Sequence record: PP355091.1
Source of the DNA: Escherichia phage 235Ecol030PP
Length of the DNA: 64,000 bases
Reading direction: 5' to 3' (one strand)
Shown piece after piece: positions 2,429 to 64,000 of the stretch. Numbering within the stretch: position 1 is the stretch's first letter; each line of letters opens with the position of its first letter. Below the pieces are notes generated by a model. It was not told the DNA's origin. It worked only from the letters and a program-made list of their open reading frames with translations, and searched no databases. The position numbers and the translations under genes were made by a program.

Positions 2429-2458
2429 ATTATACCACATCCTTGTGGTAAAGTAAAC
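2429..2458 (-). promoter_or_regulatory. T4-type early promoter (GTTTAC -35, TGnTATAAT -10)
   Basis: minus strand GTTTAC-18nt-TATAAT with TGG extension. Confidence 0.7.
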
Positions 2459-4278
2459 TACTGGCTCATCCATTCTTTACGAAGGTCAGCATTATCTCCC
2501 ATGAGCATTTCAAAAAGCTCTTTCCAGTTCTCAGGAAGTTTAACAACATCATATACTGGGTTTTGAATCATCTCACGATATTCAGATTTTTCCAAAGAGC
2601 CAAGTCCCTTAATATAACGGATGCTATGTTTAGGTAGAGTATCTTTGGCACTCTCATATTCAGCGACTGTATAAAACCATTCTTGTTTTTTACCGACCTG
2701 AGCGATGATTACAGGAGTTTTGACAAAGCGAATTCGTCCTTGCTCAAACAATTCTGGCCAATTACTAAAAAATCCGAGCAGAGAAGGATAAATGCTTCCT
2801 AGACCATCATGGTCAGCATCAGTCATAATAGCGATATTATGATAATTCAAGTTTTCAGCTTTTTCACCAAGAACTAGACCAGTTATTGCGCAAATATCAA
2901 ACAGTTCTTTGTTTTTAAGCATATCTGCATAAGACATACCCCAACTGTTGAGAACTTTACCACGTAATGGATAACCACCGTGAAGTTCTTTATCACGAAC
3001 ATCAATAAGATATCCGATAGCCGAATCACCCTCAGTCAAGAAAAGAGTAGTGTCAGCATCTTTACCACAAAGATTCGCTTTAATATGTTTATGAACCTTA
3101 GCTTTAGAAGCCTTTTTAGCCGCTTTAGTTTCTGCTGCTTTTTCTGCCGCCAATTTACGAGCTAATGCTGCTTCAATAATCGGCATTAAAATTGCTTCAT
3201 TATTTAGAATAGCACGTGAAATCTTTTTAGCATCAAGTTGAATATGACTACGGATTTCACCAAATGGAGAAGTCAAACGCTCTTTAGTTTGAGAATCAAA
3301 TCGCATGTTTTTCATATCACGAACAAACATAACGATAGTCAAACATTCTTTGACACGCGCTTTAGTTACATCAATTTTGAATTTACGTTTGATTTGTGGA
3401 ATAAGGTCTTCACAAATATCATCCATAACACAGTCAATGTGATGGCCACCATTCTTAGTGTGAATGTTATTCACATAAGTTAATTGACGAAAACCATCCG
3501 GTGAACGACCAACCGCAATAGAACAATTTTCTTGTTCTTGAACGATAGCATGTTCATCATACTGTCGTGCATATTTCTTAAAATTGCCCTGAACCTTTTT
3601 ACCATTAAAGGTAAATTGAATATCAGGATAAACTACTGCAAGTGTCTGGAGACGATCCAGTGTAATGTCAAGATAAACTTGGGACAGCTCATTAGTTTCA
3701 AATGACATAAAATCTGGAATGAAAGTAACACGAGTTCCTTTCCATTTTCCAGGAATAGTTTCCCAGGATTTATTTTCCATGCCATTTGAACAACGAACTA
3801 CAATATTATTTTGACCATCGCCAGTTTCACCAACAAACATCACAGAAAAAATGTTTGTCAAACTAGAACCAACACCATTCATACCGCCAGTGACGCGTTC
3901 TTTATCATCACCGAAGTTACCACCTGCTTTTGGAATAGTCCATGCAGCAACAGGACCAGGAATTTCTTCACCGGTAGGTGTTTTAACCATCGCCTGTGGA
4001 ATACCACGACCGTTATCTTCAACTGTTACTTGATTGTTTTTAATAGTAACATTAATTTTATTTGCGAATTTAAACTTAGTACGAATACCTTCATCTACTG
4101 AGTTATCGATAATTTCATCAATAAGCTTAACAAGACCAGGTACATACTGAACACTTTCCCATTTACCAAACAGAAAGCGCTCATGCATTTCATTAGCAGA
4201 AGAGCCAATGTACATGCCGCTACGCTTTTTGATATGTTCAATATCGCTCAGAATTTTAATTTCATTCTTAATCATCAC
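2458..4278 (-). CDS. 39: DNA topoisomerase II large subunit (GyrB-like ATPase + Toprim), unsplit 606 aa
   Basis: KRSGMYIGS ATPase N-terminus, GHKL motifs, Toprim LTEGDSA and DxD (TDADHDG); continuous ORF, no internal stop or bypass gap. Confidence 0.9.
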   Translation of the reverse strand: MMIKNEIKILSDIEHIKKRSGMYIGSSANEMHERFLFGKWESVQYVPGLVKLIDEIIDNSVDEGIRTKFKFANKINVTIKNNQVTVEDNGRGIPQAMVKTPTGEEIPGPVAAWTIPKAGGNFGDDKERVTGGMNGVGSSLTNIFSVMFVGETGDGQNNIVVRCSNGMENKSWETIPGKWKGTRVTFIPDFMSFETNELSQVYLDITLDRLQTLAVVYPDIQFTFNGKKVQGNFKKYARQYDEHAIVQEQENCSIAVGRSPDGFRQLTYVNNIHTKNGGHHIDCVMDDICEDLIPQIKRKFKIDVTKARVKECLTIVMFVRDMKNMRFDSQTKERLTSPFGEIRSHIQLDAKKISRAILNNEAILMPIIEAALARKLAAEKAAETKAAKKASKAKVHKHIKANLCGKDADTTLFLTEGDSAIGYLIDVRDKELHGGYPLRGKVLNSWGMSYADMLKNKELFDICAITGLVLGEKAENLNYHNIAIMTDADHDGLGSIYPSLLGFFSNWPELFEQGRIRFVKTPVIIAQVGKKQEWFYTVAEYESAKDTLPKHSIRYIKGLGSLEKSEYREMIQNPVYDVVKLPENWKELFEMLMGDNADLRKEWMSQ

Positions 4279-4330
4279 TTATCCTCGTTTGGTTTCGGGA
4301 ATATTATACTCCGGTAATCATAAAGTTAAA

Positions 4331-4342
4331 GGCCCGAAGGCC
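4331..4342 (-). other. UUCG-tetraloop hairpin upstream of the topoisomerase gene
   Basis: GGCC-UUCG-GGCC. Confidence 0.5.
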
Positions 4343-4344
4343 TT

Positions 4345-4605
4345 TTATTTAAAACGAATAGTTGAATCCTTAAAGAACAGCCCAGAACATACTGTTCCTT
4401 CTACTTTCTGCCCGGTAGGTCCAATAGCACGAAATCCAGTATGTTGGAAATCATTTTCAGAGCAACCGAGCCAGTTATATCCAGTGATTTCAATATTAGT
4501 AAAACCACTTGAAGACAAAACTTTGGTTGCATTATCAGCATCAGTACATCCTGCTAAAGACACTGCTAATACTAATGCTGCAATAGAACGATTAACATAT
4601 TTCAT
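4345..4605 (-). CDS. putative lipoprotein, 86 aa
   Basis: N-terminal signal peptide with lipobox (LAGC). Confidence 0.6.
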   Translation of the reverse strand: MKYVNRSIAALVLAVSLAGCTDADNATKVLSSSGFTNIEITGYNWLGCSENDFQHTGFRAIGPTGQKVEGTVCSGLFFKDSTIRFK

Positions 4606-4607
4606 AA

Positions 4608-4784
4608 TTACCCTTTAAGCAAGTCGTAAAATCCGCCATTCACATGCTTAGGAGCGGAAACTAACCGAATAGCAATCCGATGACAATCAGGACATACATC
4701 AGTATCCCTTTCAGAAATTTTCTTGATTTTTTCGTATTCTTTTGCGCAGTCTTTGGATTGGCATTTATAATCATAAAGCGGCAT
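4608..4784 (-). CDS. small zinc-ribbon protein (FmdB-like CxxC...CxxC), 58 aa
   Basis: ATG start 3 nt after upstream stop; two CxxC pairs (CQSKDC, CPDC); below ORF-track length cutoff, translated by hand. Confidence 0.45.
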   Translation of the reverse strand: MPLYDYKCQSKDCAKEYEKIKKISERDTDVCPDCHRIAIRLVSAPKHVNGGFYDLLKG

Positions 4785-56992: not shown

Positions 56993-57175
56993 TTAAACTC
57001 TCGTATTATGATCGATAATTTCATCAAGAAACATATCTAACGCTTCTACAGCATTATCAACTTTAGCTTCAAGTTCTTCAATACCTGATAAGGCAAAGTT
57101 AATGCGTTCCTCATCTGCTTTACGAATTAAAGATACCAATTCCTTAATTTTATCCGCTTGTTCGATACTAATCAT
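56993..57175 (-). CDS. small helical protein, ~60 aa (family member; start trimmed)
   Basis: [17 protein letters not shown]... pattern. Confidence 0.45.
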   Translation of the reverse strand: MISIEQADKIKELVSLIRKADEERINFALSGIEELEAKVDNAVEALDMFLDEIIDHNTRV

Positions 57176-57363
57176 TATTCCACCACATATGAAAGAGAGA
57201 ATATTGCACACGCCATGTGAGTTGCAACTTCATCACACATATTATAACGTTTCTTAAGAAGTTCTACAAGTTCTTCACTAGTAACTTCATCCATGTCGAC
57301 GAAAAAATCACCATTAATGATGACGTAGATATTTCCTTCTTGATTGAGTGCTTCAATTTTCAT
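57175..57363 (-). CDS. small protein, ~62 aa (start trimmed)
   Basis: SD GAGGAG before ATG; early promoter upstream. Confidence 0.5.
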
Positions 57364-57391
57364 GATGTTCTCCTCTTTATCCGATAGTTGT

Positions 57392-57421
57392 ATAGTACCA
57401 CAGCTCAAACGGAAAGTAAAC
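57392..57421 (-). promoter_or_regulatory. T4-type early promoter with conserved leader
   Basis: GTTTAC-18nt-TGGTACTAT. Confidence 0.7.
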
Positions 57422-57432
57422 CGGTAAAATGA

Positions 57433-57454
57433 AAAAAGTCTCCCGAAGGAGACT
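57433..57454 (-). terminator. terminator hairpin
   Basis: AGUCUCC-UUCG-GGAGACU followed by U5. Confidence 0.6.
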
Positions 57455-57458
57455 AATG

Positions 57459-57845
57459 TTATTCGAGGGAAAGAAGATACTTACTCTGGTAAAACATTCC
57501 AGTAATATCATCTATCGTGCTTTGGATGGCTGGAGGCATTTCTTTATAAATGCTGTTAGATTGGTCTAGTATGCGATCAATCATTTTAATTGTGTCGGTA
57601 GGAAGTTTACTGGCATCTGGAATTGAAGGTGTGTATTTTCTACCAGAATACCCCAAATATTGCTCACCAAATTTATCAATCAAATCTGGCAACTCGGAGA
57701 AAATAAAATCGTATGCTTTGTGTCTAGCATAACTTTTAGTTTCAAAATGTGCAGAATGAAAATAAGCTTGTGCAGCCATTAATAAACCTAAGTATTCATC
57801 TGCCTTTGAAGGTTTTCCACTTTGTGAAAAGTCACTGAATTTCAT
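57459..57845 (-). CDS. hypothetical protein, 128 aa
   Basis: ORF followed by terminator hairpin. Confidence 0.55.
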
Positions 57846-58135
57846 TCAGTCTCCAATTTAATGTTCATAATTCTAGCGTATGATTGTGCCATCTCCGCGC
57901 CTCGCTCTATACATTCAAAATCAGAAGAGCACGGGTCATTTTTATAGGTCGTTCTCATAAAACTATAGAATTGTTCAGACGATTCTACGCTTTTATTTTC
58001 AAAAAGCATATAAACATGCCTAATACCAGATTCCATAAATTTATCAAAATGAGGATCAACATTCGCTTCAATCGATGGAGATAAAACAAATGACAATCCT
58101 AGCATGGCAAATAGTGCCGTTGCTTTTAAGGCCAT
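57842..58135 (-). CDS. rI: lysis inhibition regulator rI (signal-anchor protein), 97 aa
   Basis: N-terminal signal-anchor MALKATALFAMLGLSFVLS; size 97 aa. Confidence 0.75.
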   Translation of the reverse strand: MALKATALFAMLGLSFVLSPSIEANVDPHFDKFMESGIRHVYMLFENKSVESSEQFYSFMRTTYKNDPCSSDFECIERGAEMAQSYARIMNIKLETE

Positions 58136-58147
58136 AAAGGCCTCCTA

Positions 58148-58360
58148 TCATTTTTGTCCTGTATTTACTTTATGCCGATGCACGGCCTTAACTTTATCAA
58201 GGTATTTTTCAAAATTTCGCAATCTAGTATAGTCTGCCGGAGATTGGTTGAGTGATACTTCTCGACGCAAAGCTGAAATGATATTTCCAACTTCCCTACG
58301 AATTTCATCTAATTGAAGCACAGTAAGATTGCGAAGTTGCTTTTCAGTTAATTGTAGCAT
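58148..58360 (-). CDS. hypothetical protein, 70 aa
   Basis: ORF. Confidence 0.45.
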
Positions 58361-58402
58361 ATATACCCCTTTAGTTAGATAAACCTATTTATAACTTTTG
58401 CA

Positions 58403-58984
58403 CTAACCGAGCTTTTTAGTTAATTCATTCCAATGTTTTCTACACAAAGAAACATAAATTTCATCACCAATACAGATTTGATTACCTTCTTTAACTGGTG
58501 TTCCATCTTCCATTAATCGAGCTGTCATAATCGCTTTTTTACCGCAATGACAAACTGCCTTTAGTTCAATAAGTTTATCTGCAATCGCTAAAAGTTCTTT
58601 AGAACCTTCAAATAATTTTCCAGCGAAATCAGTCCTTAATCCATAAGCCATAACAGGAACATTATATGTATCAACAATTCGACTTAATTGATGCACTTGT
58701 TCAGTTTTTAAAAATTGGGCTTCATCTACAAATACACAATGAATATCTTTTTGTGCTTCAGCCCATTTATAGAACTCGAAAATATCCATATCATCTGTAA
58801 TAATATTCGCTTCCTGCTTAATTCCAATGCGAGAAACGACTTCACAGACAGAATCGCGAGTATCAATAGCAGGCTTAAGAACTAATACACTCATTCCACG
58901 TTCTTTATAATTATGTGCAGCAGTCAAAAGAGAAGCAGATTTTCCAGCATTCATTGCTGCATAAGTAAAAATTAAACTCGCCAT
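58403..58984 (-). CDS. tk: thymidine kinase, 193 aa
   Basis: P-loop MNAGKSASLL, zinc-binding CHCGK...C motif; size 193 aa. Confidence 0.85.
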   Translation of the reverse strand: MASLIFTYAAMNAGKSASLLTAAHNYKERGMSVLVLKPAIDTRDSVCEVVSRIGIKQEANIITDDMDIFEFYKWAEAQKDIHCVFVDEAQFLKTEQVHQLSRIVDTYNVPVMAYGLRTDFAGKLFEGSKELLAIADKLIELKAVCHCGKKAIMTARLMEDGTPVKEGNQICIGDEIYVSLCRKHWNELTKKLG

Positions 58985-58985
58985 T

Positions 58986-59174
58986 TTAGTCCTTAGTTAA
59001 ATTTTCTAAATATGTTTCTAAATCATTTTCAGCTTTATCGATAGATTTTACTAATTCGTAATATGTTTCGGCATCTCCATATTCAGAAGATATTTCAAAA
59101 GACAAATCCTTTTCTAAACTAATAATTTCACCAACTAAAAATAATATTTCGTTCTTTTGTTCGCGAGTAATCAT
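58986..59174 (-). CDS. small helical protein, 62 aa (family member)
   Basis: MITREQKNEILFLVGEI... pattern. Confidence 0.5.
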   Translation of the reverse strand: MITREQKNEILFLVGEIISLEKDLSFEISSEYGDAETYYELVKSIDKAENDLETYLENLTKD

Positions 59175-59356
59175 AAGGAATTTATATAATCAATGAGTTC
59201 TTGTTCTTTATTATCAAATTCTTTGGAAAGTTCTTCATATTCATTTGCGCTAAAAGGACCGCATTCATTACAAACTTTTTCCAATTCACTATTTTTATCC
59301 ATAATTTCGTGGATAAGAGAAAAGAGTTTGTCTTTTTGTTCTTTGCTTAGGCTCAT
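59171..59356 (-). CDS. small helical protein, 61 aa (family member)
   Basis: MSLSKEQKDKLFSLIHEI... pattern. Confidence 0.5.
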   Translation of the reverse strand: MSLSKEQKDKLFSLIHEIMDKNSELEKVCNECGPFSANEYEELSKEFDNKEQELIDYINSL

Positions 59357-59522
59357 ATATTAATTTCCAGAAGTTTTAAAATAATTCGCTTTTGCTTAAA
59401 TATTTCCACAGTTAAATGATCAGTATCTTTTTGACCAATTCCAATGGCAAAACCTTTATTAACAGCGAGTTCAATTAAATTATCAAGTTCACGTAACACT
59501 TCATATTGTAACTCAGAACTAT

Positions 59523-59735
59523 TCATTTTGGTTTACCTTCTTTAACGAAATCAGGATAAGGATAAAATCCTGAATAAAATCCTTCACCTTTATGATTGAT
59601 GCATCCTTTATTAGAACAATAGCACCAATAATCGAAATCACAAGCCATTTCATCGTTGCATAAAGCAAAAACAACCGGCCACTTACACTTTTCACAGTGG
59701 GCATTTTTAAGAATACTAGTTTGGCTCATAACCAT
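59523..59735 (-). CDS. Cys-rich small protein, 70 aa
   Basis: multiple CxxC-like pairs. Confidence 0.45.
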   Translation of the reverse strand: MVMSQTSILKNAHCEKCKWPVVFALCNDEMACDFDYWCYCSNKGCINHKGEGFYSGFYPYPDFVKEGKPK

Positions 59736-59953
59736 GTCACCTTTAAGCAGTATTCTTCTACATGTTGTTTACGACCTTTCTTATCAATAAAGGTATATTC
59801 AACGAATGTTCCAATGTAGTCTTTATCTACATCATGTGGACTATTAATTGGACATTTAGTACGGCAAATGCGTTCCCATTGACGAATAATTACTGCTTTG
59901 TTTTTAGGATCAAACGGATGTGGATAATGTATATTCATAATAATGGTTCCCAA
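59726..59953 (-). CDS. hypothetical protein, 75 aa
   Basis: ORF. Confidence 0.45.
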   Translation of the reverse strand: MGTIIMNIHYPHPFDPKNKAVIIRQWERICRTKCPINSPHDVDKDYIGTFVEYTFIDKKGRKQHVEEYCLKVTWL

Positions 59954-60402
59954 TCAACAATCACAATTTCTAATTTAGAGGAATATGCATCTAAAATCCC
60001 CTCAATAATATCCCAGTTCCCTTTACCTATGCCTGCACCAATCCTAGGCATATAGATTGTAGGTTTAATTAGTTTATTTTCACCAAACTCATTTAATTCT
60101 AACATACAATTCATTAAAGCGGAATACTCAAAATTTGGCCCTGGCTGAAATTGAGTATAAAGGTTGAAGCAATACGCTTTATGAGTCCTAAAGTATTTTT
60201 CATAAACTGAGTAAGAACCGAGTTTAGTTACATCACCCCATTCAGTCTGTAATTTATCAGCTTCCAAAATTTTAGGGAAAGCTTTGGTTAATTGACCCGC
60301 TACGCCTGAACCCATAGTATGAAAACAATTGCATCCATGCGCAATATTTTTACCTTCAGCGAAAAGGGCGACAATATCGCCCTTGATATATTTTACAATC
60401 AT
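59935..60402 (-). CDS. macro-domain protein (ADP-ribose binding/hydrolase-like), 155 aa
   Basis: N..H...GSGVAG and GAGIGKG glycine-rich loops typical of macro domains. Confidence 0.55.
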   Translation of the reverse strand: MIVKYIKGDIVALFAEGKNIAHGCNCFHTMGSGVAGQLTKAFPKILEADKLQTEWGDVTKLGSYSVYEKYFRTHKAYCFNLYTQFQPGPNFEYSALMNCMLELNEFGENKLIKPTIYMPRIGAGIGKGNWDIIEGILDAYSSKLEIVIVDWEPLL

Positions 60403-60746
60403 CTAGTACTCAATCCTCGATTATAAGAATCTACCAAACGGTCAACCATTGAATGACAAGCGGCTTTATCTTTCTCCTCCGCAACTGAACATTCTAAAGT
60501 ATTCCACTTTTTAGCATATCGTTTTAACAATGTATAGTTTTTGTATCTGCTTGATTTATCCCTTTCTCCGTCTTTATATGCATATATTAATTTCTGTGCA
60601 AATTCAGCTTGGCATGCTTTATTTTTCCCACAATAATCTGCCGCAGTGCGGTTTACATATTCTCTAATTTCAGTATATGATGTATCTGCTGACGCAGAAG
60701 CAGAAAATGAAATTAATCCTATACATAAAACTAAAATTTTAGTCAT
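60399..60746 (-). CDS. secreted protein with signal peptide, 115 aa
   Basis: signal peptide MTKILVLCIGLISFSASASA. Confidence 0.55.
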   Translation of the reverse strand: MTKILVLCIGLISFSASASADTSYTEIREYVNRTAADYCGKNKACQAEFAQKLIYAYKDGERDKSSRYKNYTLLKRYAKKWNTLECSVAEEKDKAACHSMVDRLVDSYNRGLSTR

Positions 60747-61284
60747 TTACTATTTCCAAAAGTTTATTATTTTTAAGGTAATTAGCCTTTTCTAGGACTT
60801 CAGAAGCATATTTAGAACCAGCTTTAACATTCCATCCCGAATTATAAGAGGATATTGCTTTTCTTATATCGCCCTTATGTATATTTAACCAATAAGAAAG
60901 TTCAATGTACGCCCAGGAAGCTGAATTGGATCGTTTATTCAACATTCTTTTTATTTCAGCATCGGTCATATTATAACCAAGTTCCTTAACTCTTGCTCGC
61001 ATAGTAGGCAAATAATTTTGGAACATTCCGTAGGCGTGATGCTTTGGTTTAGATTTTAAATTAACTCCGCCAGAGCTTTCTTGCCATAAAATGGCTGCCA
61101 TTATATGACCTAATCCGCTCTTGTGGATATTTTTGTGTGTTTTATATTTTCCATCCTTAGAAAATTGTTCCCCGAATTGATACGCGTAACGCATGTTATC
61201 GAGTTGGACATTACTGAAAGTATGCTCGGAGCTATGTGCCATCATTGAAATGGCCAATAGACCAGCGAGTAGTGCTTTTCTCAT
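60739..61284 (-). CDS. secreted lytic transglycosylase-like protein, 181 aa
   Basis: signal peptide; SLT-like ...WQESSGG... and YNSG motifs. Confidence 0.55.
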   Translation of the reverse strand: MRKALLAGLLAISMMAHSSEHTFSNVQLDNMRYAYQFGEQFSKDGKYKTHKNIHKSGLGHIMAAILWQESSGGVNLKSKPKHHAYGMFQNYLPTMRARVKELGYNMTDAEIKRMLNKRSNSASWAYIELSYWLNIHKGDIRKAISSYNSGWNVKAGSKYASEVLEKANYLKNNKLLEIVND

Positions 61285-61291
61285 GCTTACC

Positions 61292-61753
61292 TCATTGAGT
61301 TTTAATTACTGCTTTAGAAGCCTTTCCTGGTAAACGACGACTGTTGATAATTGCCATCCTACATTGAAGTGACGGGTCTTTGAATTTCGCATTAGGTTTA
61401 CAAACTGTAAATCCAAGCCAAAGATTTCCATCTGTGATTTCTAAACGTCCAGGACGATATTCAACCCCATCAATAAAATCCTCGTCAATGTCAGGACGCG
61501 GAGGCATACTCAGGAATTCATTAACTTCTAAAACATGGTCTTTTATTTTATGGAATAATTCAAAAACATATGTCTCATCAATCTCCCGTTGAATTGCGCG
61601 ATCAAGAAGATGCTGAGAATATTTTAGATGAAACGATGAGACCCCTGCTGCTTTTGATGCCTCACGAATCTCATTGTTAATTTGACGAAACTCCGACTCA
61701 AAGTGACGACGAAGCTTATTTCGACGGATAAAAACTTCTGTATTGATAGTCAT
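61292..61753 (-). CDS. regB: endoribonuclease RegB, 153 aa
   Basis: size 153 aa; sequence recalled as RegB; early promoter upstream. Confidence 0.75.
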   Translation of the reverse strand: MTINTEVFIRRNKLRRHFESEFRQINNEIREASKAAGVSSFHLKYSQHLLDRAIQREIDETYVFELFHKIKDHVLEVNEFLSMPPRPDIDEDFIDGVEYRPGRLEITDGNLWLGFTVCKPNAKFKDPSLQCRMAIINSRRLPGKASKAVIKTQ

Positions 61754-61780
61754 GTTATTCTCCTCTTAACTGATAGAAAA

Positions 61781-61810
61781 ATTATACCACAGTCAAGAGG
61801 AAAAGTAAAC
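61781..61810 (-). promoter_or_regulatory. T4-type early promoter upstream of regB
   Basis: GTTTAC-18nt-TGGTATAAT. Confidence 0.7.
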
Positions 61811-61812
61811 AG

Positions 61813-62091
61813 TTATTCTTTAAATCTAATCAATTTATTCATAGACTTTGAAACTTCGGCACGAACCTCATGTAGATTTTTGAGCTGTTCAAGACGCTGC
61901 GTATAGTAAGCAATTTCATCTTCTTCGAGACAGTCCTGCGAATCTTCTTTAAGATAACGTGCATAGTCCTGGAAAGCGTTACGGACTACTTCCTGGAAGT
62001 CATCAAGACTTTGAATTTTCTTAGGAGCAACAGATACACGACGAGGGGCAGTATAATACTCATAACCAAACCCTGCGCTTAATTGAGCCAT
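61813..62091 (-). CDS. hypothetical protein (start trimmed)
   Basis: ORF. Confidence 0.4.
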
Positions 62092-62357
62092 TAGTATTTT
62101 TCCTCTGGTTGGAACACTGCACGACAAGCCCACATACTGGCTTCTTTGAGTTTCGTTTTAGCAATAGTTAACTGATCGAGGCTTTCAGCATAATTCTTCG
62201 CGAATTCACAGTCTTCACAATTATCTAGTGCTTCCCAGAATTCATCGTATAAAGCGTCAAAGATAAGTCCTAAACGAACTTCAGCGTCTTTGATAGCATT
62301 CACTTTACCGATTTTCTCTTCAGTATGTGGCTTATAACCCTTAATATCTTCAATCAT
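62091..62357 (-). CDS. hypothetical protein (start trimmed)
   Basis: ORF. Confidence 0.4.
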
Positions 62358-62571
62358 ATTTGACTTCCTCACCAGTACATAAATCATATTCAACTAAACG
62401 AATGGGTTCATGAATGCCATATCCCTGAACAGAAATTTCTGTCGTAGGATAAATTCCATCAATATCACCCATATTCCACGCTTCATTAAATTGCTGTTCG
62501 CCTGAATTACTAAACCACTCGGCGAAAGCATTTAGCACATCTTCAGAACCTTCAATAATTATCTTTGCCAT
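62350..62571 (-). CDS. hypothetical acidic protein, 73 aa
   Basis: ORF. Confidence 0.45.
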   Translation of the reverse strand: MAKIIIEGSEDVLNAFAEWFSNSGEQQFNEAWNMGDIDGIYPTTEISVQGYGIHEPIRLVEYDLCTGEEVKYD

Positions 62572-62933
62572 TACAAACTTTCGGTGAAGGTACGAGCGAT
62601 AACGTCGCGCTGCTGTTCCGGAGTCAGAGAGTTAAAGCGAACTGCATAACCGGATACACGGATGGTCAGCTGCGGATATTTTTCCGGATGCTTAACTGCA
62701 TCTTCCAGAGTTTCACGACGCAGAACGTTAACGTTCAGGTGTTGACCACCTTCAATTTTAACTGTAGGCTGTTGCTCAATTTCAATTTCACGGGCATGCA
62801 AACCATAGAAAATTTCTGGGTCTACAAAAGAGTCCTCTTTAAAGGTTTTAGAAACGATAATTCGTGCTTGAATACCATCTTCAAAATAAATAGTACCTTT
62901 GTGTGTGCCTTCAAGAATTTGATATGCTTTCAT
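62571..62933 (-). CDS. autonomous glycyl radical cofactor (GrcA/YfiD-like), 120 aa
   Basis: C-terminal half matches the PFL/GrcA glycyl radical region incl. RVSGYAV. Confidence 0.85.
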
Positions 62934-62940
62934 ATAAACC

Positions 62941-63270
62941 TCAATTAGAAAATAAATTTATCCAAGATTGTTCTTTAATTAAAAATGGCTCAGAATCATA
63001 TGCCATTAAACTCTGTGTGATTAGTCCTTTAAAAGGCCCATCAATAAATTCCATGGTAAAATATGGAATTTTATTCATTAGCCGTGCATTAGGAGCCGTG
63101 CACAAAACTCTGCATCCTTTGAATACGCCTTTTTGTAATTTGTATTGCTTAGGATAAAATTCGCTCAAAATGTTATTTTTTGCCAAAATTTCAAAATGAT
63201 TCACCAATTTATTTTTAATAGTTTTTGGTGAAAAATAAAGATATTCGAAAAGCTGAGTGTCTGTCATCAT
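62941..63270 (-). CDS. hypothetical protein, ~110 aa (start trimmed to MMTDTQ)
   Basis: ORF coupled to the upstream gene stop. Confidence 0.45.
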
Positions 63271-63806
63271 TGCATTCCGATTACGAAAAACTGTGGACGA
63301 GTAATACCACCAATGCAACATTTAATATTACAGCAGCAGTGTACAGTGTCAATATGGACACTATAAATCTTATCCATATCAGGAGATTTGACAGGCTCAT
63401 CAATTATATATAAAATTCGCGAAAGCTTTAAACCTCTGAACTTGCTTCCTTTATTACCGATAAAACTGCGCACAGAATCAGTAAATAAACGAAAACGTAT
63501 ATCATCATTAGAATAACGCGAAAATTCCTTTTTAATGTTATTTGCAGAAATTTTAGCGTAAGCTGAAGTATTAGAAAGAACAATAACTGTTCCGCCATCA
63601 TACAACCAATTAGCAGCAAAGTTAGTCACAGCAATTGATTTACCGGATTGACGCCCACCATCTAGTCGAAGTGTGCAATACTGTTTAAGTAAGTCTTCAA
63701 ATGGCGGGATATATTCGTTTTTACAAATTTCTTCTACTCTAGCATCAGAATGGTGTGTAAAAGCATTCATCAGGGATAGATAAGGACCAGTTAAAAATGT
63801 TCTCAT
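63267..63806 (-). CDS. P-loop NTPase-like protein with Cys-rich C-terminus, 179 aa
   Basis: Walker A-like DGGRQSGKS, Walker B-like ILYIIDEP. Confidence 0.55.
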   Translation of the reverse strand: MRTFLTGPYLSLMNAFTHHSDARVEEICKNEYIPPFEDLLKQYCTLRLDGGRQSGKSIAVTNFAANWLYDGGTVIVLSNTSAYAKISANNIKKEFSRYSNDDIRFRLFTDSVRSFIGNKGSKFRGLKLSRILYIIDEPVKSPDMDKIYSVHIDTVHCCCNIKCCIGGITRPQFFVIGMQ

Positions 63807-64000
63807 TTCTTCTCTCTAAATTTGGGCCATTCCGTGGCGCATGAATTGTCCATTTCTGTATTTACCCATTACCGCACTTGGGCTCGACCTTATTACAGGT
63901 TGGCGGGAATCCCTCACAGAATCATGAGGTCCAGCTTGTTCCCATTTTATTTGAATGTAAATAGATCTGAGTTAGGAATTACGGGCTGCATTAGCAACGG

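Follow-up and report, generated by a model that had tools for sequence, protein, structure and literature searches.

Our analysis of a 181-residue protein encoded among early genes of an Escherichia phage indicates that it is the Vs.1 protein of phage T4 and that the gene probably (at about 70%, in our estimate) specifies an early, Sec-exported enzyme of the GH23 lytic-transglycosylase type that would carry out limited remodeling of the host envelope. Vs.1 is thereby a predicted third peptidoglycan-cleaving enzyme of T4, the best-studied virulent phage, and its gene is conserved in >2,000 sequenced myoviruses from three phage groups. Learning its function would close a gap in the understanding of how large lytic phages handle the host envelope after injection and before lysis, the candidates being pre-lysis conditioning of the wall, support of cell enlargement in lysis inhibition, and hindrance of secondary infection. 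The SLT annotation of Vs.1 is in itself ordinary and not new, since the similarity is already in print (Nolan 2006, which cites Miller 2003) and is found in some GenBank records.

The window, by which we mean the whole 64,000-nt stretch of DNA that was analyzed, is that of a Tequatrovirus with an RB14-type gene layout. The open reading frame proposed in the first-pass annotation (60739-61284) is present on the minus strand with an ATG start, its product is 100% identical to T4 Vs.1 (T4 ORF 61.4), and by sequence it is the phage T4 gene vs.1. The gene order in the window is regB-vs.1-vs-tk.4 (Table 1), with the stop codon of regB overlapping the ribosome-binding site of vs.1. Mapping of GGAG motifs revealed no RegB-type GGAG site at that ribosome-binding site, where the Shine-Dalgarno sequence is GAGG. 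No Rfam match was obtained for positions 57000-64000 of the window, and PADLOC returned no defense-system match for Vs.1 or Vs.

The description of vs.1 as an early gene proved right. A T4-early-type promoter is found upstream of regB, at the place where the record X04567 annotates a -10 element, and its predicted promoter function makes it likely that the regB-vs.1-vs-tk.4 transcript starts there. T4 omics data list vs.1 with early RNA and a middle protein that was detected by mass spectrometry (PMC9697503 supplement). In infection, vs.1 would be transcribed together with regB from the early promoter and Vs.1 protein would accumulate from the middle period onward.

Table 1. Positions of vs.1, its predicted parts and neighboring features in the window.
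Feature	Position	Strand	Details	Basis
T4-early-type promoter, upstream of regB	61781..61809	-	GTTTAC-N17-TGGTATAAT	Consensus scan 10/12, extended TG
regB (endoribonuclease), directly upstream of vs.1	61292..61753	-		Pfam REGB_T4 E=1.4e-68; T4 annotation
vs.1 Shine-Dalgarno	61290..61293	-	GAGG, 5 nt upstream of ATG	Read from sequence
vs.1 CDS, predicted exported SLT/GH23-family peptidoglycan glycosidase	60739..61284	-	181 aa, 20.7 kDa precursor	ATG start
Predicted Sec signal peptide	61231..61284	-	Residues 1-18 (MRKALLAGLLAISMMAHS, followed by S)	n-/h-/c-regions, -3/-1 rule
Predicted mature periplasmic enzyme	60742..61230	-	Residues 19-181	18.8 kDa, pI 9.65 (computed)
Motif I, WQESSGG	61066..61086	-	Residues 67-73; Glu69 (codon 61078-61080) the proposed catalytic acid	Conservation, alignments
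Motif II, GMFQNY	61012..61029	-	Residues 86-91; counterpart of SLT 'GLMQ'	Gly86 96% conserved; hhalign mapping
Motif III, SYNSG	60835..60849	-	Residues 146-150; counterpart of SLT 'AYNAG'	Tyr147 99%, Gly150 98%
vs, directly downstream of vs.1	60399..60746	-	8-nt overlap with vs.1 (ATGACTAA)	115 aa, signal peptide (ASA, followed by D), four invariant Cys

The signal peptide that had been proposed for Vs.1 was supported by an n-/h-/c-region reading, in which a basic n-region (MRK) and a 13-residue h-region (ALLAGLLAISMMA) are followed by AHS and then Ser, giving a -3/-1 site of the form A-x-S. An equivalent signal-peptide-like N-terminus is present in 111 of the 120 full-length members of the Vs.1 family, and the AF2 model has its low confidence here, with a pLDDT of ~50 over residues 1-20. 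Vs.1 would be exported via Sec, with signal peptidase I cutting after Ser18, and the product after cleavage is expected to be a soluble, basic periplasmic enzyme of 18.8 kDa. T4 Vs.1 is without cysteine, and distant clades of the family have an invariant Cys pair, one shortly past the signal peptide and one C-terminal, as expected for periplasmic proteins. The short hydrophobic region, with a cleavage site behind it, led us to reject a reading of the N-terminus as that of a SAR endolysin.

Membership of the SLT family, for which the first-pass annotation had suggested a profile search, is supported by Vs.1 scoring above the curated Pfam threshold (PF01464, residues 61-154, 25.1 bits vs. a cut-off of 21.3, E=1.4e-5), and the SLT-like catalytic region that the annotation had described was located, WQESSGG spanning residues 67-73 and YNSG residues 147-150. 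The Pfam SLT model was matched independently by 50 of 96 family members, the best with E=1.6e-10. When the PDB was searched with a 96-sequence family profile the match was to EtgA (E=8.3e-7), with a weak one to the goose-type lysozyme 3gxk (E=0.013). EtgA was reached in the PDB only with this broader profile; the single Vs.1 sequence and a narrow T4-like profile each gave noise only. Profile-to-profile alignment by hhalign linked the family to EtgA with 93.5% probability (E=2.3e-7) and to the catalytic domain of Slt70 with E=2.7e-5, the latter comparison being uninformative with the narrow profile (probability 0.5%). PHROG profiles matched by Vs.1 include endolysin-type SLT domains, NCBIfam had no match for Vs.1, and a cluster look-up of its distant relatives found no names attached to them.

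A GH23 (SLT / goose-lysozyme) fold is also predicted for mature Vs.1 by its AF2 model, which has a pLDDT of 88 and a pTM of 0.82, with pLDDT >90 across most of residues 21-170. Foldseek matches to the model in the PDB include MltD, Slt, LtgA, a GH23 chitinase, g-type lysozyme, the phi6 P5 lysin and T7 gp16. Nearly all of the best 37 are GH23 or related lysozyme-like glycosidases, with a few GH19 chitinases, fungal muramidases and destabilase ranked lower among them. Solved GH23 structures resemble the model only modestly (TM 0.45-0.54, best Foldseek E=7.5e-3), and the viral models that it matches are those of SLT/LT_GEWL proteins.

The three motifs of Vs.1 occur in the SLT order. The absence of a catalytic Glu on alignment had been named as the result that would speak against the assignment, and we found Glu69 in 125 of 125 Vs.1 homologs, aligned with the catalytic Glu of Slt70 (in 'RQES') and with that of EtgA (E42, in 'AWNES'). 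It is followed by Ser70 in 93% of the homologs and by either Ser or Thr in all 125. In motif II, Gln89 takes the position of EtgA Q65 in the hhalign alignment, a position that is Gln in 70 and His in 40 of the 125 sequences and is invariant in the T4-like set, and in motif III Tyr147 and Asn148 are aligned with EtgA Y116 and N117. Six active-site residues have been named for EtgA, including E42, Q65, Y116, N117 and Y133 (PMC10880428), and these five have counterparts in Vs.1 (E69, Q89, Y147, N148 and Y159, respectively). Four of the counterparts, E69, Y147, N148 and Y159, are 84-100% conserved across the 125-sequence family, with Y159 at 98%.

The position of the second catalytic acid of EtgA, Asp60, is occupied in Vs.1 by Ala84, two residues before motif II (hhalign), and is Asp in 20% of the family; classical lytic transglycosylases likewise have no such second acid. 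No conserved acidic residue was found at positions 70-95 of Vs.1, either across the family or in the T4 clade, and this stretch thus has no counterpart of the acidic residue or residues by which goose-type lysozymes, in the beta-hairpin past the catalytic Glu, position the water. Asp or Glu is found at position 82 in 46% of the family and at position 84 in 20%, and the T4 clade has no acid at either position. Both Slt70 and Vs.1, as read from the sequences, have Ala at the second position ahead of the conserved Gly in the GLMQ-type motif, the hhalign alignment of the two being shifted by one residue at this Ala. The lack of a second conserved acid in the Vs.1 family makes lytic-transglycosylase chemistry the most likely, in which Glu69 would serve as the single general acid cleaving the MurNAc-beta-1,4-GlcNAc bond of peptidoglycan and 1,6-anhydro-MurNAc ends would be left. 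As EtgA is a hybrid for which the choice between muramidase and lytic transglycosylase is undecided (PMC10880428), this assignment for Vs.1 is one that we infer.

That hybrid character of its best relative is also a reason to consider Vs.1 a hydrolytic muramidase (goose-lysozyme or EtgA type), which would have the same fold, export and target bond but use water as the nucleophile. Both chemistries occur within GH23, the highest-ranked Foldseek matches include a GH23 chitinase and g-type lysozyme, and the weak profile match to 3gxk points the same way. However, the position of EtgA Asp60, which is that of hen-lysozyme Asp52, is Ala84 in Vs.1, no acid is conserved family-wide from Glu69 to Gly86, and the Ala before the GLMQ-type Gly is as in Slt70. 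We therefore think a muramidase rather improbable.

The proposal that Vs.1, as a lytic transglycosylase, makes limited and non-lethal cuts in the host sacculus, and so has an accessory part in remodeling or conditioning the envelope, is made because its architecture resembles that of small exported 'specialized' wall enzymes such as EtgA. Those enzymes, EtgA of EPEC/EHEC type III secretion (PDB 8urn, 4xp8) and the IpgF/IagB/VirB1 types, are small (~150-180 aa), single-domain, Sec-exported GH23 proteins, and Vs.1 likewise is a small single domain (181 aa) with a predicted Sec signal peptide (residues 1-18). EtgA is its nearest solved relative by profile, with counterparts in Vs.1 for five of the six active-site residues, and the disulfide conserved in EtgA and its relatives (PMC10880428) has a parallel in the conserved Cys pair of distant Vs.1-family members. 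There are also differences, as EtgA has Asp60 where Vs.1 has Ala84, T4 Vs.1 is cysteine-free, and no targeting or activating partner of the EscI kind is known for Vs.1. In addition, EtgA is tied to a secretion apparatus, whereas vs.1 belongs to virulent phages and lies with early genes or genes of nucleotide metabolism. The catalytic domain of Slt70 (family 1, PF01464) shares with Vs.1 its fold, the order of the E-S, G-x-x-Q and Y-N-x-G motifs and a single acidic catalytic residue. The identity between them is only ~20%; Vs.1 is without the superhelical domains (U and L) of Slt70 and carries an N-terminal helix that is specific to its family and in which Gln27 is invariant. The biological role was argued from analogy and gene context, and searches of the literature, several of them swamped by the 'vs. 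1' of clinical papers, found no enzymatic, localization, genetic or functional data on Vs.1. An unregulated wall enzyme in the periplasm early in infection would be dangerous to the infected cell, which implies that Vs.1 has low activity or is under some control.

Homologs of Vs.1 were identified in 2,045 phage records from the Straboviridae, the Ackermannviridae and Felixounavirus, with their genes in early or nucleotide-metabolism blocks, such as among nrd and thymidylate-synthase genes in the Ackermannviridae. They were seen in phage genomes only and not inside the locus of a machine that spans the envelope (T3SS, T4SS or flagellum), and a pattern scan of 185,579 representative genomes, made from one alignment where two others were too divergent for such a search, found no relative. 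A plasmid search with Vs.1 and one distant family member yielded no homolog, which argues against a link to conjugation-type lytic transglycosylases.

The first-pass annotation had suggested superinfection exclusion or DNA injection, rather than lysis, as the role of such an enzyme. In T4, exclusion is explained by Imm and Spackle. These are the known T4 exclusion factors, and Spackle (gp61.3), like Vs.1, is small, early, exported to the periplasm (by prediction for Vs.1) and concerned with peptidoglycan-cleaving activity (PMC7677548). It is, however, no enzyme but a helical protein that inhibits the gp5 lysozyme, and is unrelated to Vs.1 in sequence or fold. That early and, for Vs.1, predicted periplasmic setting, together with the presence of vs.1 and rI in one genome segment, is what favors Vs.1 as a factor for superinfection exclusion or for resistance to lysis from without, whose alteration of the wall would block secondary injection or lysis from outside. 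On the other hand, neither a link of vs.1 to exclusion nor genetic evidence for one was found in the literature searched, cutting of peptidoglycan would be expected to weaken rather than strengthen resistance to lysis from without, and the family extends to Felixounavirus and the Ackermannviridae, in which T4-type exclusion is not described. We regard such a role as distinctly doubtful.

A direct contribution of Vs.1 to host lysis, as an auxiliary or back-up endolysin delivered by Sec, appears just as doubtful. The label 'putative lysin' is attached to its homologs in some records, the PHROG matches include SLT domains of endolysin type, the homolog in Vibrio phage Kuja lies between small proteins that have two transmembrane segments, and that of Felixounavirus finno lies ~0.8 kb upstream of spanin genes. 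Nevertheless, the finno gene is part of a rIIA-rIIB-pnk early block and that phage has a separate gene, elsewhere, annotated as 'lysin'. In T4, vs.1 is on early transcripts beside regB and not with t/e or the late genes, and the 13-residue h-region followed by the A-H-S site matches a cleavable signal peptide rather than a SAR anchor. An endolysin would be recognized by late expression and/or a holin-spanin cassette and by being the sole lysis enzyme, and vs.1 displays none of these. The endolysin of T4 is gp e, and e mutants fail to lyse although their vs.1 is intact. It is therefore reasonable that Vs.1 acts otherwise than in lysis, given its early gene, the separation of the finno homolog from the endolysin and the failure of T4 e mutants to lyse. 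In the envelope-remodeling role that we favor, Vs.1 would be neither the endolysin (gp e) nor the injection enzyme (gp5).

Vs.1 could instead have kept the SLT fold for peptidoglycan binding alone, as an inactive protein; its Pfam score barely exceeds the threshold and activity has never been reported, but we consider this very unlikely as conservation within the family is highest at the residues forming the active site of EtgA and Slt70 (E69 100%, Y147 99%, Y159 98%, S70 93%), which indicates selection on catalysis. The injection muramidase of T4 is gp5. A DNA-injection role for Vs.1 is unlikely because Sec export would take it out of the compartment in which virions are assembled and because gp5 already fills that role, and the notion of a virion-associated enzyme like T7 gp16 or PRD1 P7, opening the wall for DNA entry, has in our view next to no chance of being correct: the remote matches by structure and by profile include T7 gp16 and phage internal-virion and tail SLT domains, but a cleavable signal peptide would remove Vs.1 from the cytoplasm where heads and tails are assembled, the protein is an early-encoded single domain of 181 aa without a structural-protein module, and the T4 tail spike already bears the gp5 lysozyme (PMC7677548). 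Virion-borne SLT domains (T7 gp16, phi6 P5, tail tape-measure and internal-virion proteins) have the catalytic fold in common with Vs.1; they are parts of large structural proteins carried in the particle, whereas Vs.1 is free, early and bears a signal peptide.

A second signal-peptide protein immediately downstream had also been reported, and vs (60399-60746) does have a signal-peptide-like N-terminus; mature Vs would comprise residues 21-115 (11.1 kDa). The two reading frames overlap, and vs is possibly co-translated with vs.1. Potentially, Vs.1 and Vs form a periplasmic pair in which a disulfide-bonded helical protein regulates or targets the wall-cutting enzyme and the two condition the sacculus early, affecting lysis timing, lysis inhibition or superinfection, although we view this as a long shot. 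If it were so, gp e and gp5/Spackle would be joined in T4 by a third muralytic system, a regulated one, and the 'valyl-tRNA synthetase modifier' ORF would be mis-assigned or its product dual-localized. An obligate pairing was rejected because Vs is absent from most phages that have Vs.1, its family being much narrower (795 vs. 2,045 phage records). Pfam and NCBIfam matches for Vs were below threshold. No meaningful structural neighbor was found in the PDB for its AF2 model, and a likeness to Spackle or to a known inhibitor of lysozymes or transglycosylases is thus unsupported. The model itself is a four-helix bundle, and Vs looks periplasmic, which is at odds with its name, 'valyl-tRNA synthetase modifier'.

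Our analyses support the identification of vs.1 as a gene for an exported GH23 enzyme that is produced from early transcripts and whose active site appears, by sequence comparison, to be intact and strongly conserved. Its product is 100% identical to T4 ORF 61.4, that is, Vs.1 (UniProt P13311), and the two motifs named in the first-pass annotation, WQESSGG and YNSG, were both located, at residues 67-73 and 147-150, respectively. The SLT-like catalytic region proposed there was borne out by profile and structural comparisons. Pfam SLT (PF01464) matched residues 61-154 with 25.1 bits, above its curated cut-off of 21.3, and PHROGs assigned Vs.1 to phrog_600 (“unknown function”), with weaker matches to families of tail, endolysin and internal-virion proteins that contain SLT. 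Homologues were recovered in 77 clusters, each of about 170-188 aa, and an exhaustive profile search returned 422 family representatives at E<=1e-3, nearly all of 150-230 aa. PDB searches with the single sequence or a narrow profile found no solved relative; a profile of 96 family sequences matched the EscI-EtgA fusion 8urn (E=8.3e-7) and a goose-type lysozyme (E=0.013). In hhalign the same profile aligned with EtgA, the peptidoglycan glycosidase of EPEC/EHEC type III secretion (93.5% probability, E=2.3e-7), and with the catalytic domain of the E. coli lytic transglycosylase Slt70, taken from the K-12 genome (E=2.7e-5). The AlphaFold2 model, for which a T4-like alignment was the input, is of high confidence (pLDDT 88, pTM 0.82), its PDB neighbors being MltD, a Ralstonia GH23 chitinase, g-type lysozyme, P. 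aeruginosa Slt, Neisseria LtgA, phi6 P5 and T7 gp16, at modest TM scores of 0.45-0.54; its neighbors among viral models are SLT/LT_GEWL proteins.

Absence of the catalytic glutamate on alignment, which the first-pass annotation had named as grounds for refutation, was not borne out. Glu69 lies on the catalytic residue in both alignments (Slt70 “RQES”; EtgA “AWNES”, E42) and is found in 100% of an alignment of 125 sequences, followed by Y147 (99%), G150 and Y159 (98% each), G73 (97%), G86, W132 and Q27 (96% each) and S70 (93%). The active-site residues of EtgA, E42, D60, Q65, Y116, N117 and Y133 (PMC10880428), correspond in hhalign to E69, A84, Q89, Y147, N148 and Y159 of Vs.1, five of the six being retained. 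Four of those five (E69, Y147, N148 and Y159) are among the best-conserved columns of the family, and position 89, a Gln in 70 of the 125 sequences, does not vary within the T4-like set. GH23 encompasses both lytic transglycosylase and muramidase chemistries. We infer that Vs.1 would act as a single-acid lytic transglycosylase because Ala84 occupies the position of EtgA Asp60, Slt70 and Vs.1 both have Ala two residues ahead of the conserved Gly in the GLMQ-type motif (read from the sequences, the hhalign alignment of Vs.1 with Slt70 being one residue out of register there), and no conserved acidic residue was found at family positions 70-95. For EtgA, the choice between the two chemistries is undecided (PMC10880428).

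The N-terminus of Vs.1, MRK-ALLAGLLAISMMA-AHS↓S, is built like a Sec signal peptide, with all three regions and an A-x-S site for cleavage, in agreement with the signal peptide first proposed. This rule-based reading is supported by the low confidence of residues 1-20 in the AlphaFold2 model and by the wider family, in which 111 of 120 full-length members begin with an equivalent signal-peptide-like sequence. Sec export with cleavage after Ser18 would leave a predicted mature protein of 163 aa (18.8 kDa, pI 9.65).

The placement of vs.1 among early genes also held. A T4-early-type promoter is located upstream of the endoribonuclease gene regB, a scan of the minus strand from that promoter to tk.4 found no terminator-like site, and T4 time-course omics class vs.1 as early RNA and middle protein, its product being detected by mass spectrometry (PMC9697503 supplement). 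Over 1.5 kb around vs.1, identity to T4, RB14 and many further Tequatrovirus genomes is 99%, and the T4 gene order (rI - rI.1 - tk - tk.1..tk.4 - vs - vs.1 - regB - vs.3...) is present, with the rI-to-vs.3 genes on the minus strand throughout; plus-strand ORFs are all short (41-49 aa). The vs.1 Shine-Dalgarno sequence, GAGG, lies 5 nt before the ATG and shares bases with the regB stop codon. GGAG, the motif at which RegB cleaves, is part of the regB ribosome-binding site, which fits the known autoregulation of regB, and this motif is absent from the ribosome-binding sites of vs.1 and vs. An Rfam search of 57000-64000 gave zero matches. Two extra small ORFs give the locus an RB14/RB32 layout rather than a strict T4 one; one is of 57 aa and the other of 70 aa, Cys-rich (CEKC...C...C), and their RB14 counterparts are RB32ORF110c and RB32ORF111c. 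Based on its Pfam Macro match, the tk.4 product possibly binds or hydrolyzes ADP-ribose, an activity that would then be encoded in the early operon of vs.1. The tk.4 label differs by record (“phosphatase” versus “macro domain”).

Features of the vs.1 region and Vs.1-like loci of other phages (coordinates of the latter refer to L006, L007, L009 and L010)
Feature	Position	Strand	Details
T4-early-type promoter	61781-61809	minus	upstream of regB; GTTTAC-N17-TGGTATAAT
regB leader	61754-61770	minus	ribosome-binding site AAGAGGAGAA
vs.1	60739..61284	minus	ATG start, 181 aa
vs	60399-60746	minus	“valyl-tRNA synthetase modifier”; 8-nt overlap with vs.1
tk.4	59935-60402	minus	Pfam Macro domain, E=2.8e-6, above cut-off
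Extra small ORFs	59353-59526 and 59523-59735	minus	between tk.2 and tk.3; absent from T4
Det7 gp70 (L006)	2453-3070		distant Vs.1 member
finno_46 (L007)	2501-3049		distant Vs.1 member
VAP7 (L009)	3995-4710		Vs.1-like, Vibrio Ackermannviridae
Kuja (L010)	3597-4650		Vs.1-like, Vibrio Ackermannviridae

The overlapping downstream gene, vs, does encode a second signal-peptide protein, as had been noted, with a textbook Sec sequence, MTKILVLCIGLISFSASASA↓DTSY (…SASASA↓D), and a predicted mature form of 95 aa (11.1 kDa). Its four Cys are invariant in 12 of 12 homologues, its model is a four-helix bundle for which no PDB neighbor was found, and from these predictions Vs looks like a periplasmic disulfide-bonded protein. 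Such features are hard to reconcile with the binding to a cytoplasmic enzyme that its name implies (PMC8076793), and the ORF assignment or the localization deserves a check. An obligate pairing of Vs with Vs.1 was rejected because Vs occurs in 795 phage records versus 2,045 for Vs.1.

With regard to function, we infer that Vs.1 performs limited, non-lethal remodeling of the wall. It is similar in architecture to specialized exported wall enzymes of the EtgA type and by analogy resembles them in how it would work, but it is kept out of their class because it lacks two of their hallmarks, a second acid and a link to a trans-envelope machine. A part for Vs.1 in superinfection exclusion is possible, but nothing supports it. 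The other role put forward in the first-pass annotation, DNA injection, is very unlikely since Vs.1 is predicted to be exported, exported proteins are not packaged, and in T4 that role is already filled by gp5. Vs.1 is not the endolysin, consistent with that annotation's “rather than lysis”, because vs.1 is expressed early, lies outside any lysis cassette, and T4 e mutants fail to lyse although their vs.1 is intact.

The feature is real and its molecular reading correct; both publications and databases already annotate it. Nolan et al. found the SLT similarity of Vs.1 conserved in six of six phages compared and cited PSI-BLAST results from an earlier source, the 2003 T4 genome review; some GenBank records label vs.1 “lytic transglycosylase” or “transglycosylase SLT domain-containing protein”. 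No functional study of vs.1 was found in the literature searched. Our analyses add a residue-level link to EtgA and Slt70, active-site invariance over a much larger family, a signal peptide consistent across that family, and a phage-only distribution spanning three phage groups.

With tblastn, homologues of vs.1 were found in 2,045 phage records, among them Straboviridae of Escherichia, Klebsiella, Aeromonas and Acinetobacter, the Ackermannviridae Det7 and PhiSH19 (VAP7 and Kuja being matched via a distant family member), and Felixounavirus, including finno and others. No homologue was found in the plasmids searched, and no T4-type relative turned up when 185,579 representative genomes of bacteria and archaea were scanned by pattern. 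An alignment of distant members revealed two invariant Cys, one directly following the signal peptide and one close to the C-terminus, a pair that probably forms an N-to-C disulfide, which fits the periplasm; T4 Vs.1 has zero Cys, both having been lost. Aeromonas phage 31 retains the order regB - vs.1 - ... - tk.4, with a 75-aa ORF and a lipoprotein in place of vs. The finno block is rIIA - rIIB - [vs.1-like] - pnk - ... - spanins, and another “lysin” gene adjoins tail genes 17 kb from the vs.1-like gene. In VAP7, the gene is found among nrdA/nrdB and thymidylate synthase, and in Kuja it lies between two small proteins, each with two transmembrane segments. The Kuja arrangement is reminiscent of a lysis cassette, and because of that resemblance the roles of the family may differ between phages. 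The annotation of the Vs.1-like gene in the Vibrio Ackermannviridae reads “membrane lipoprotein” or “hypothetical”.
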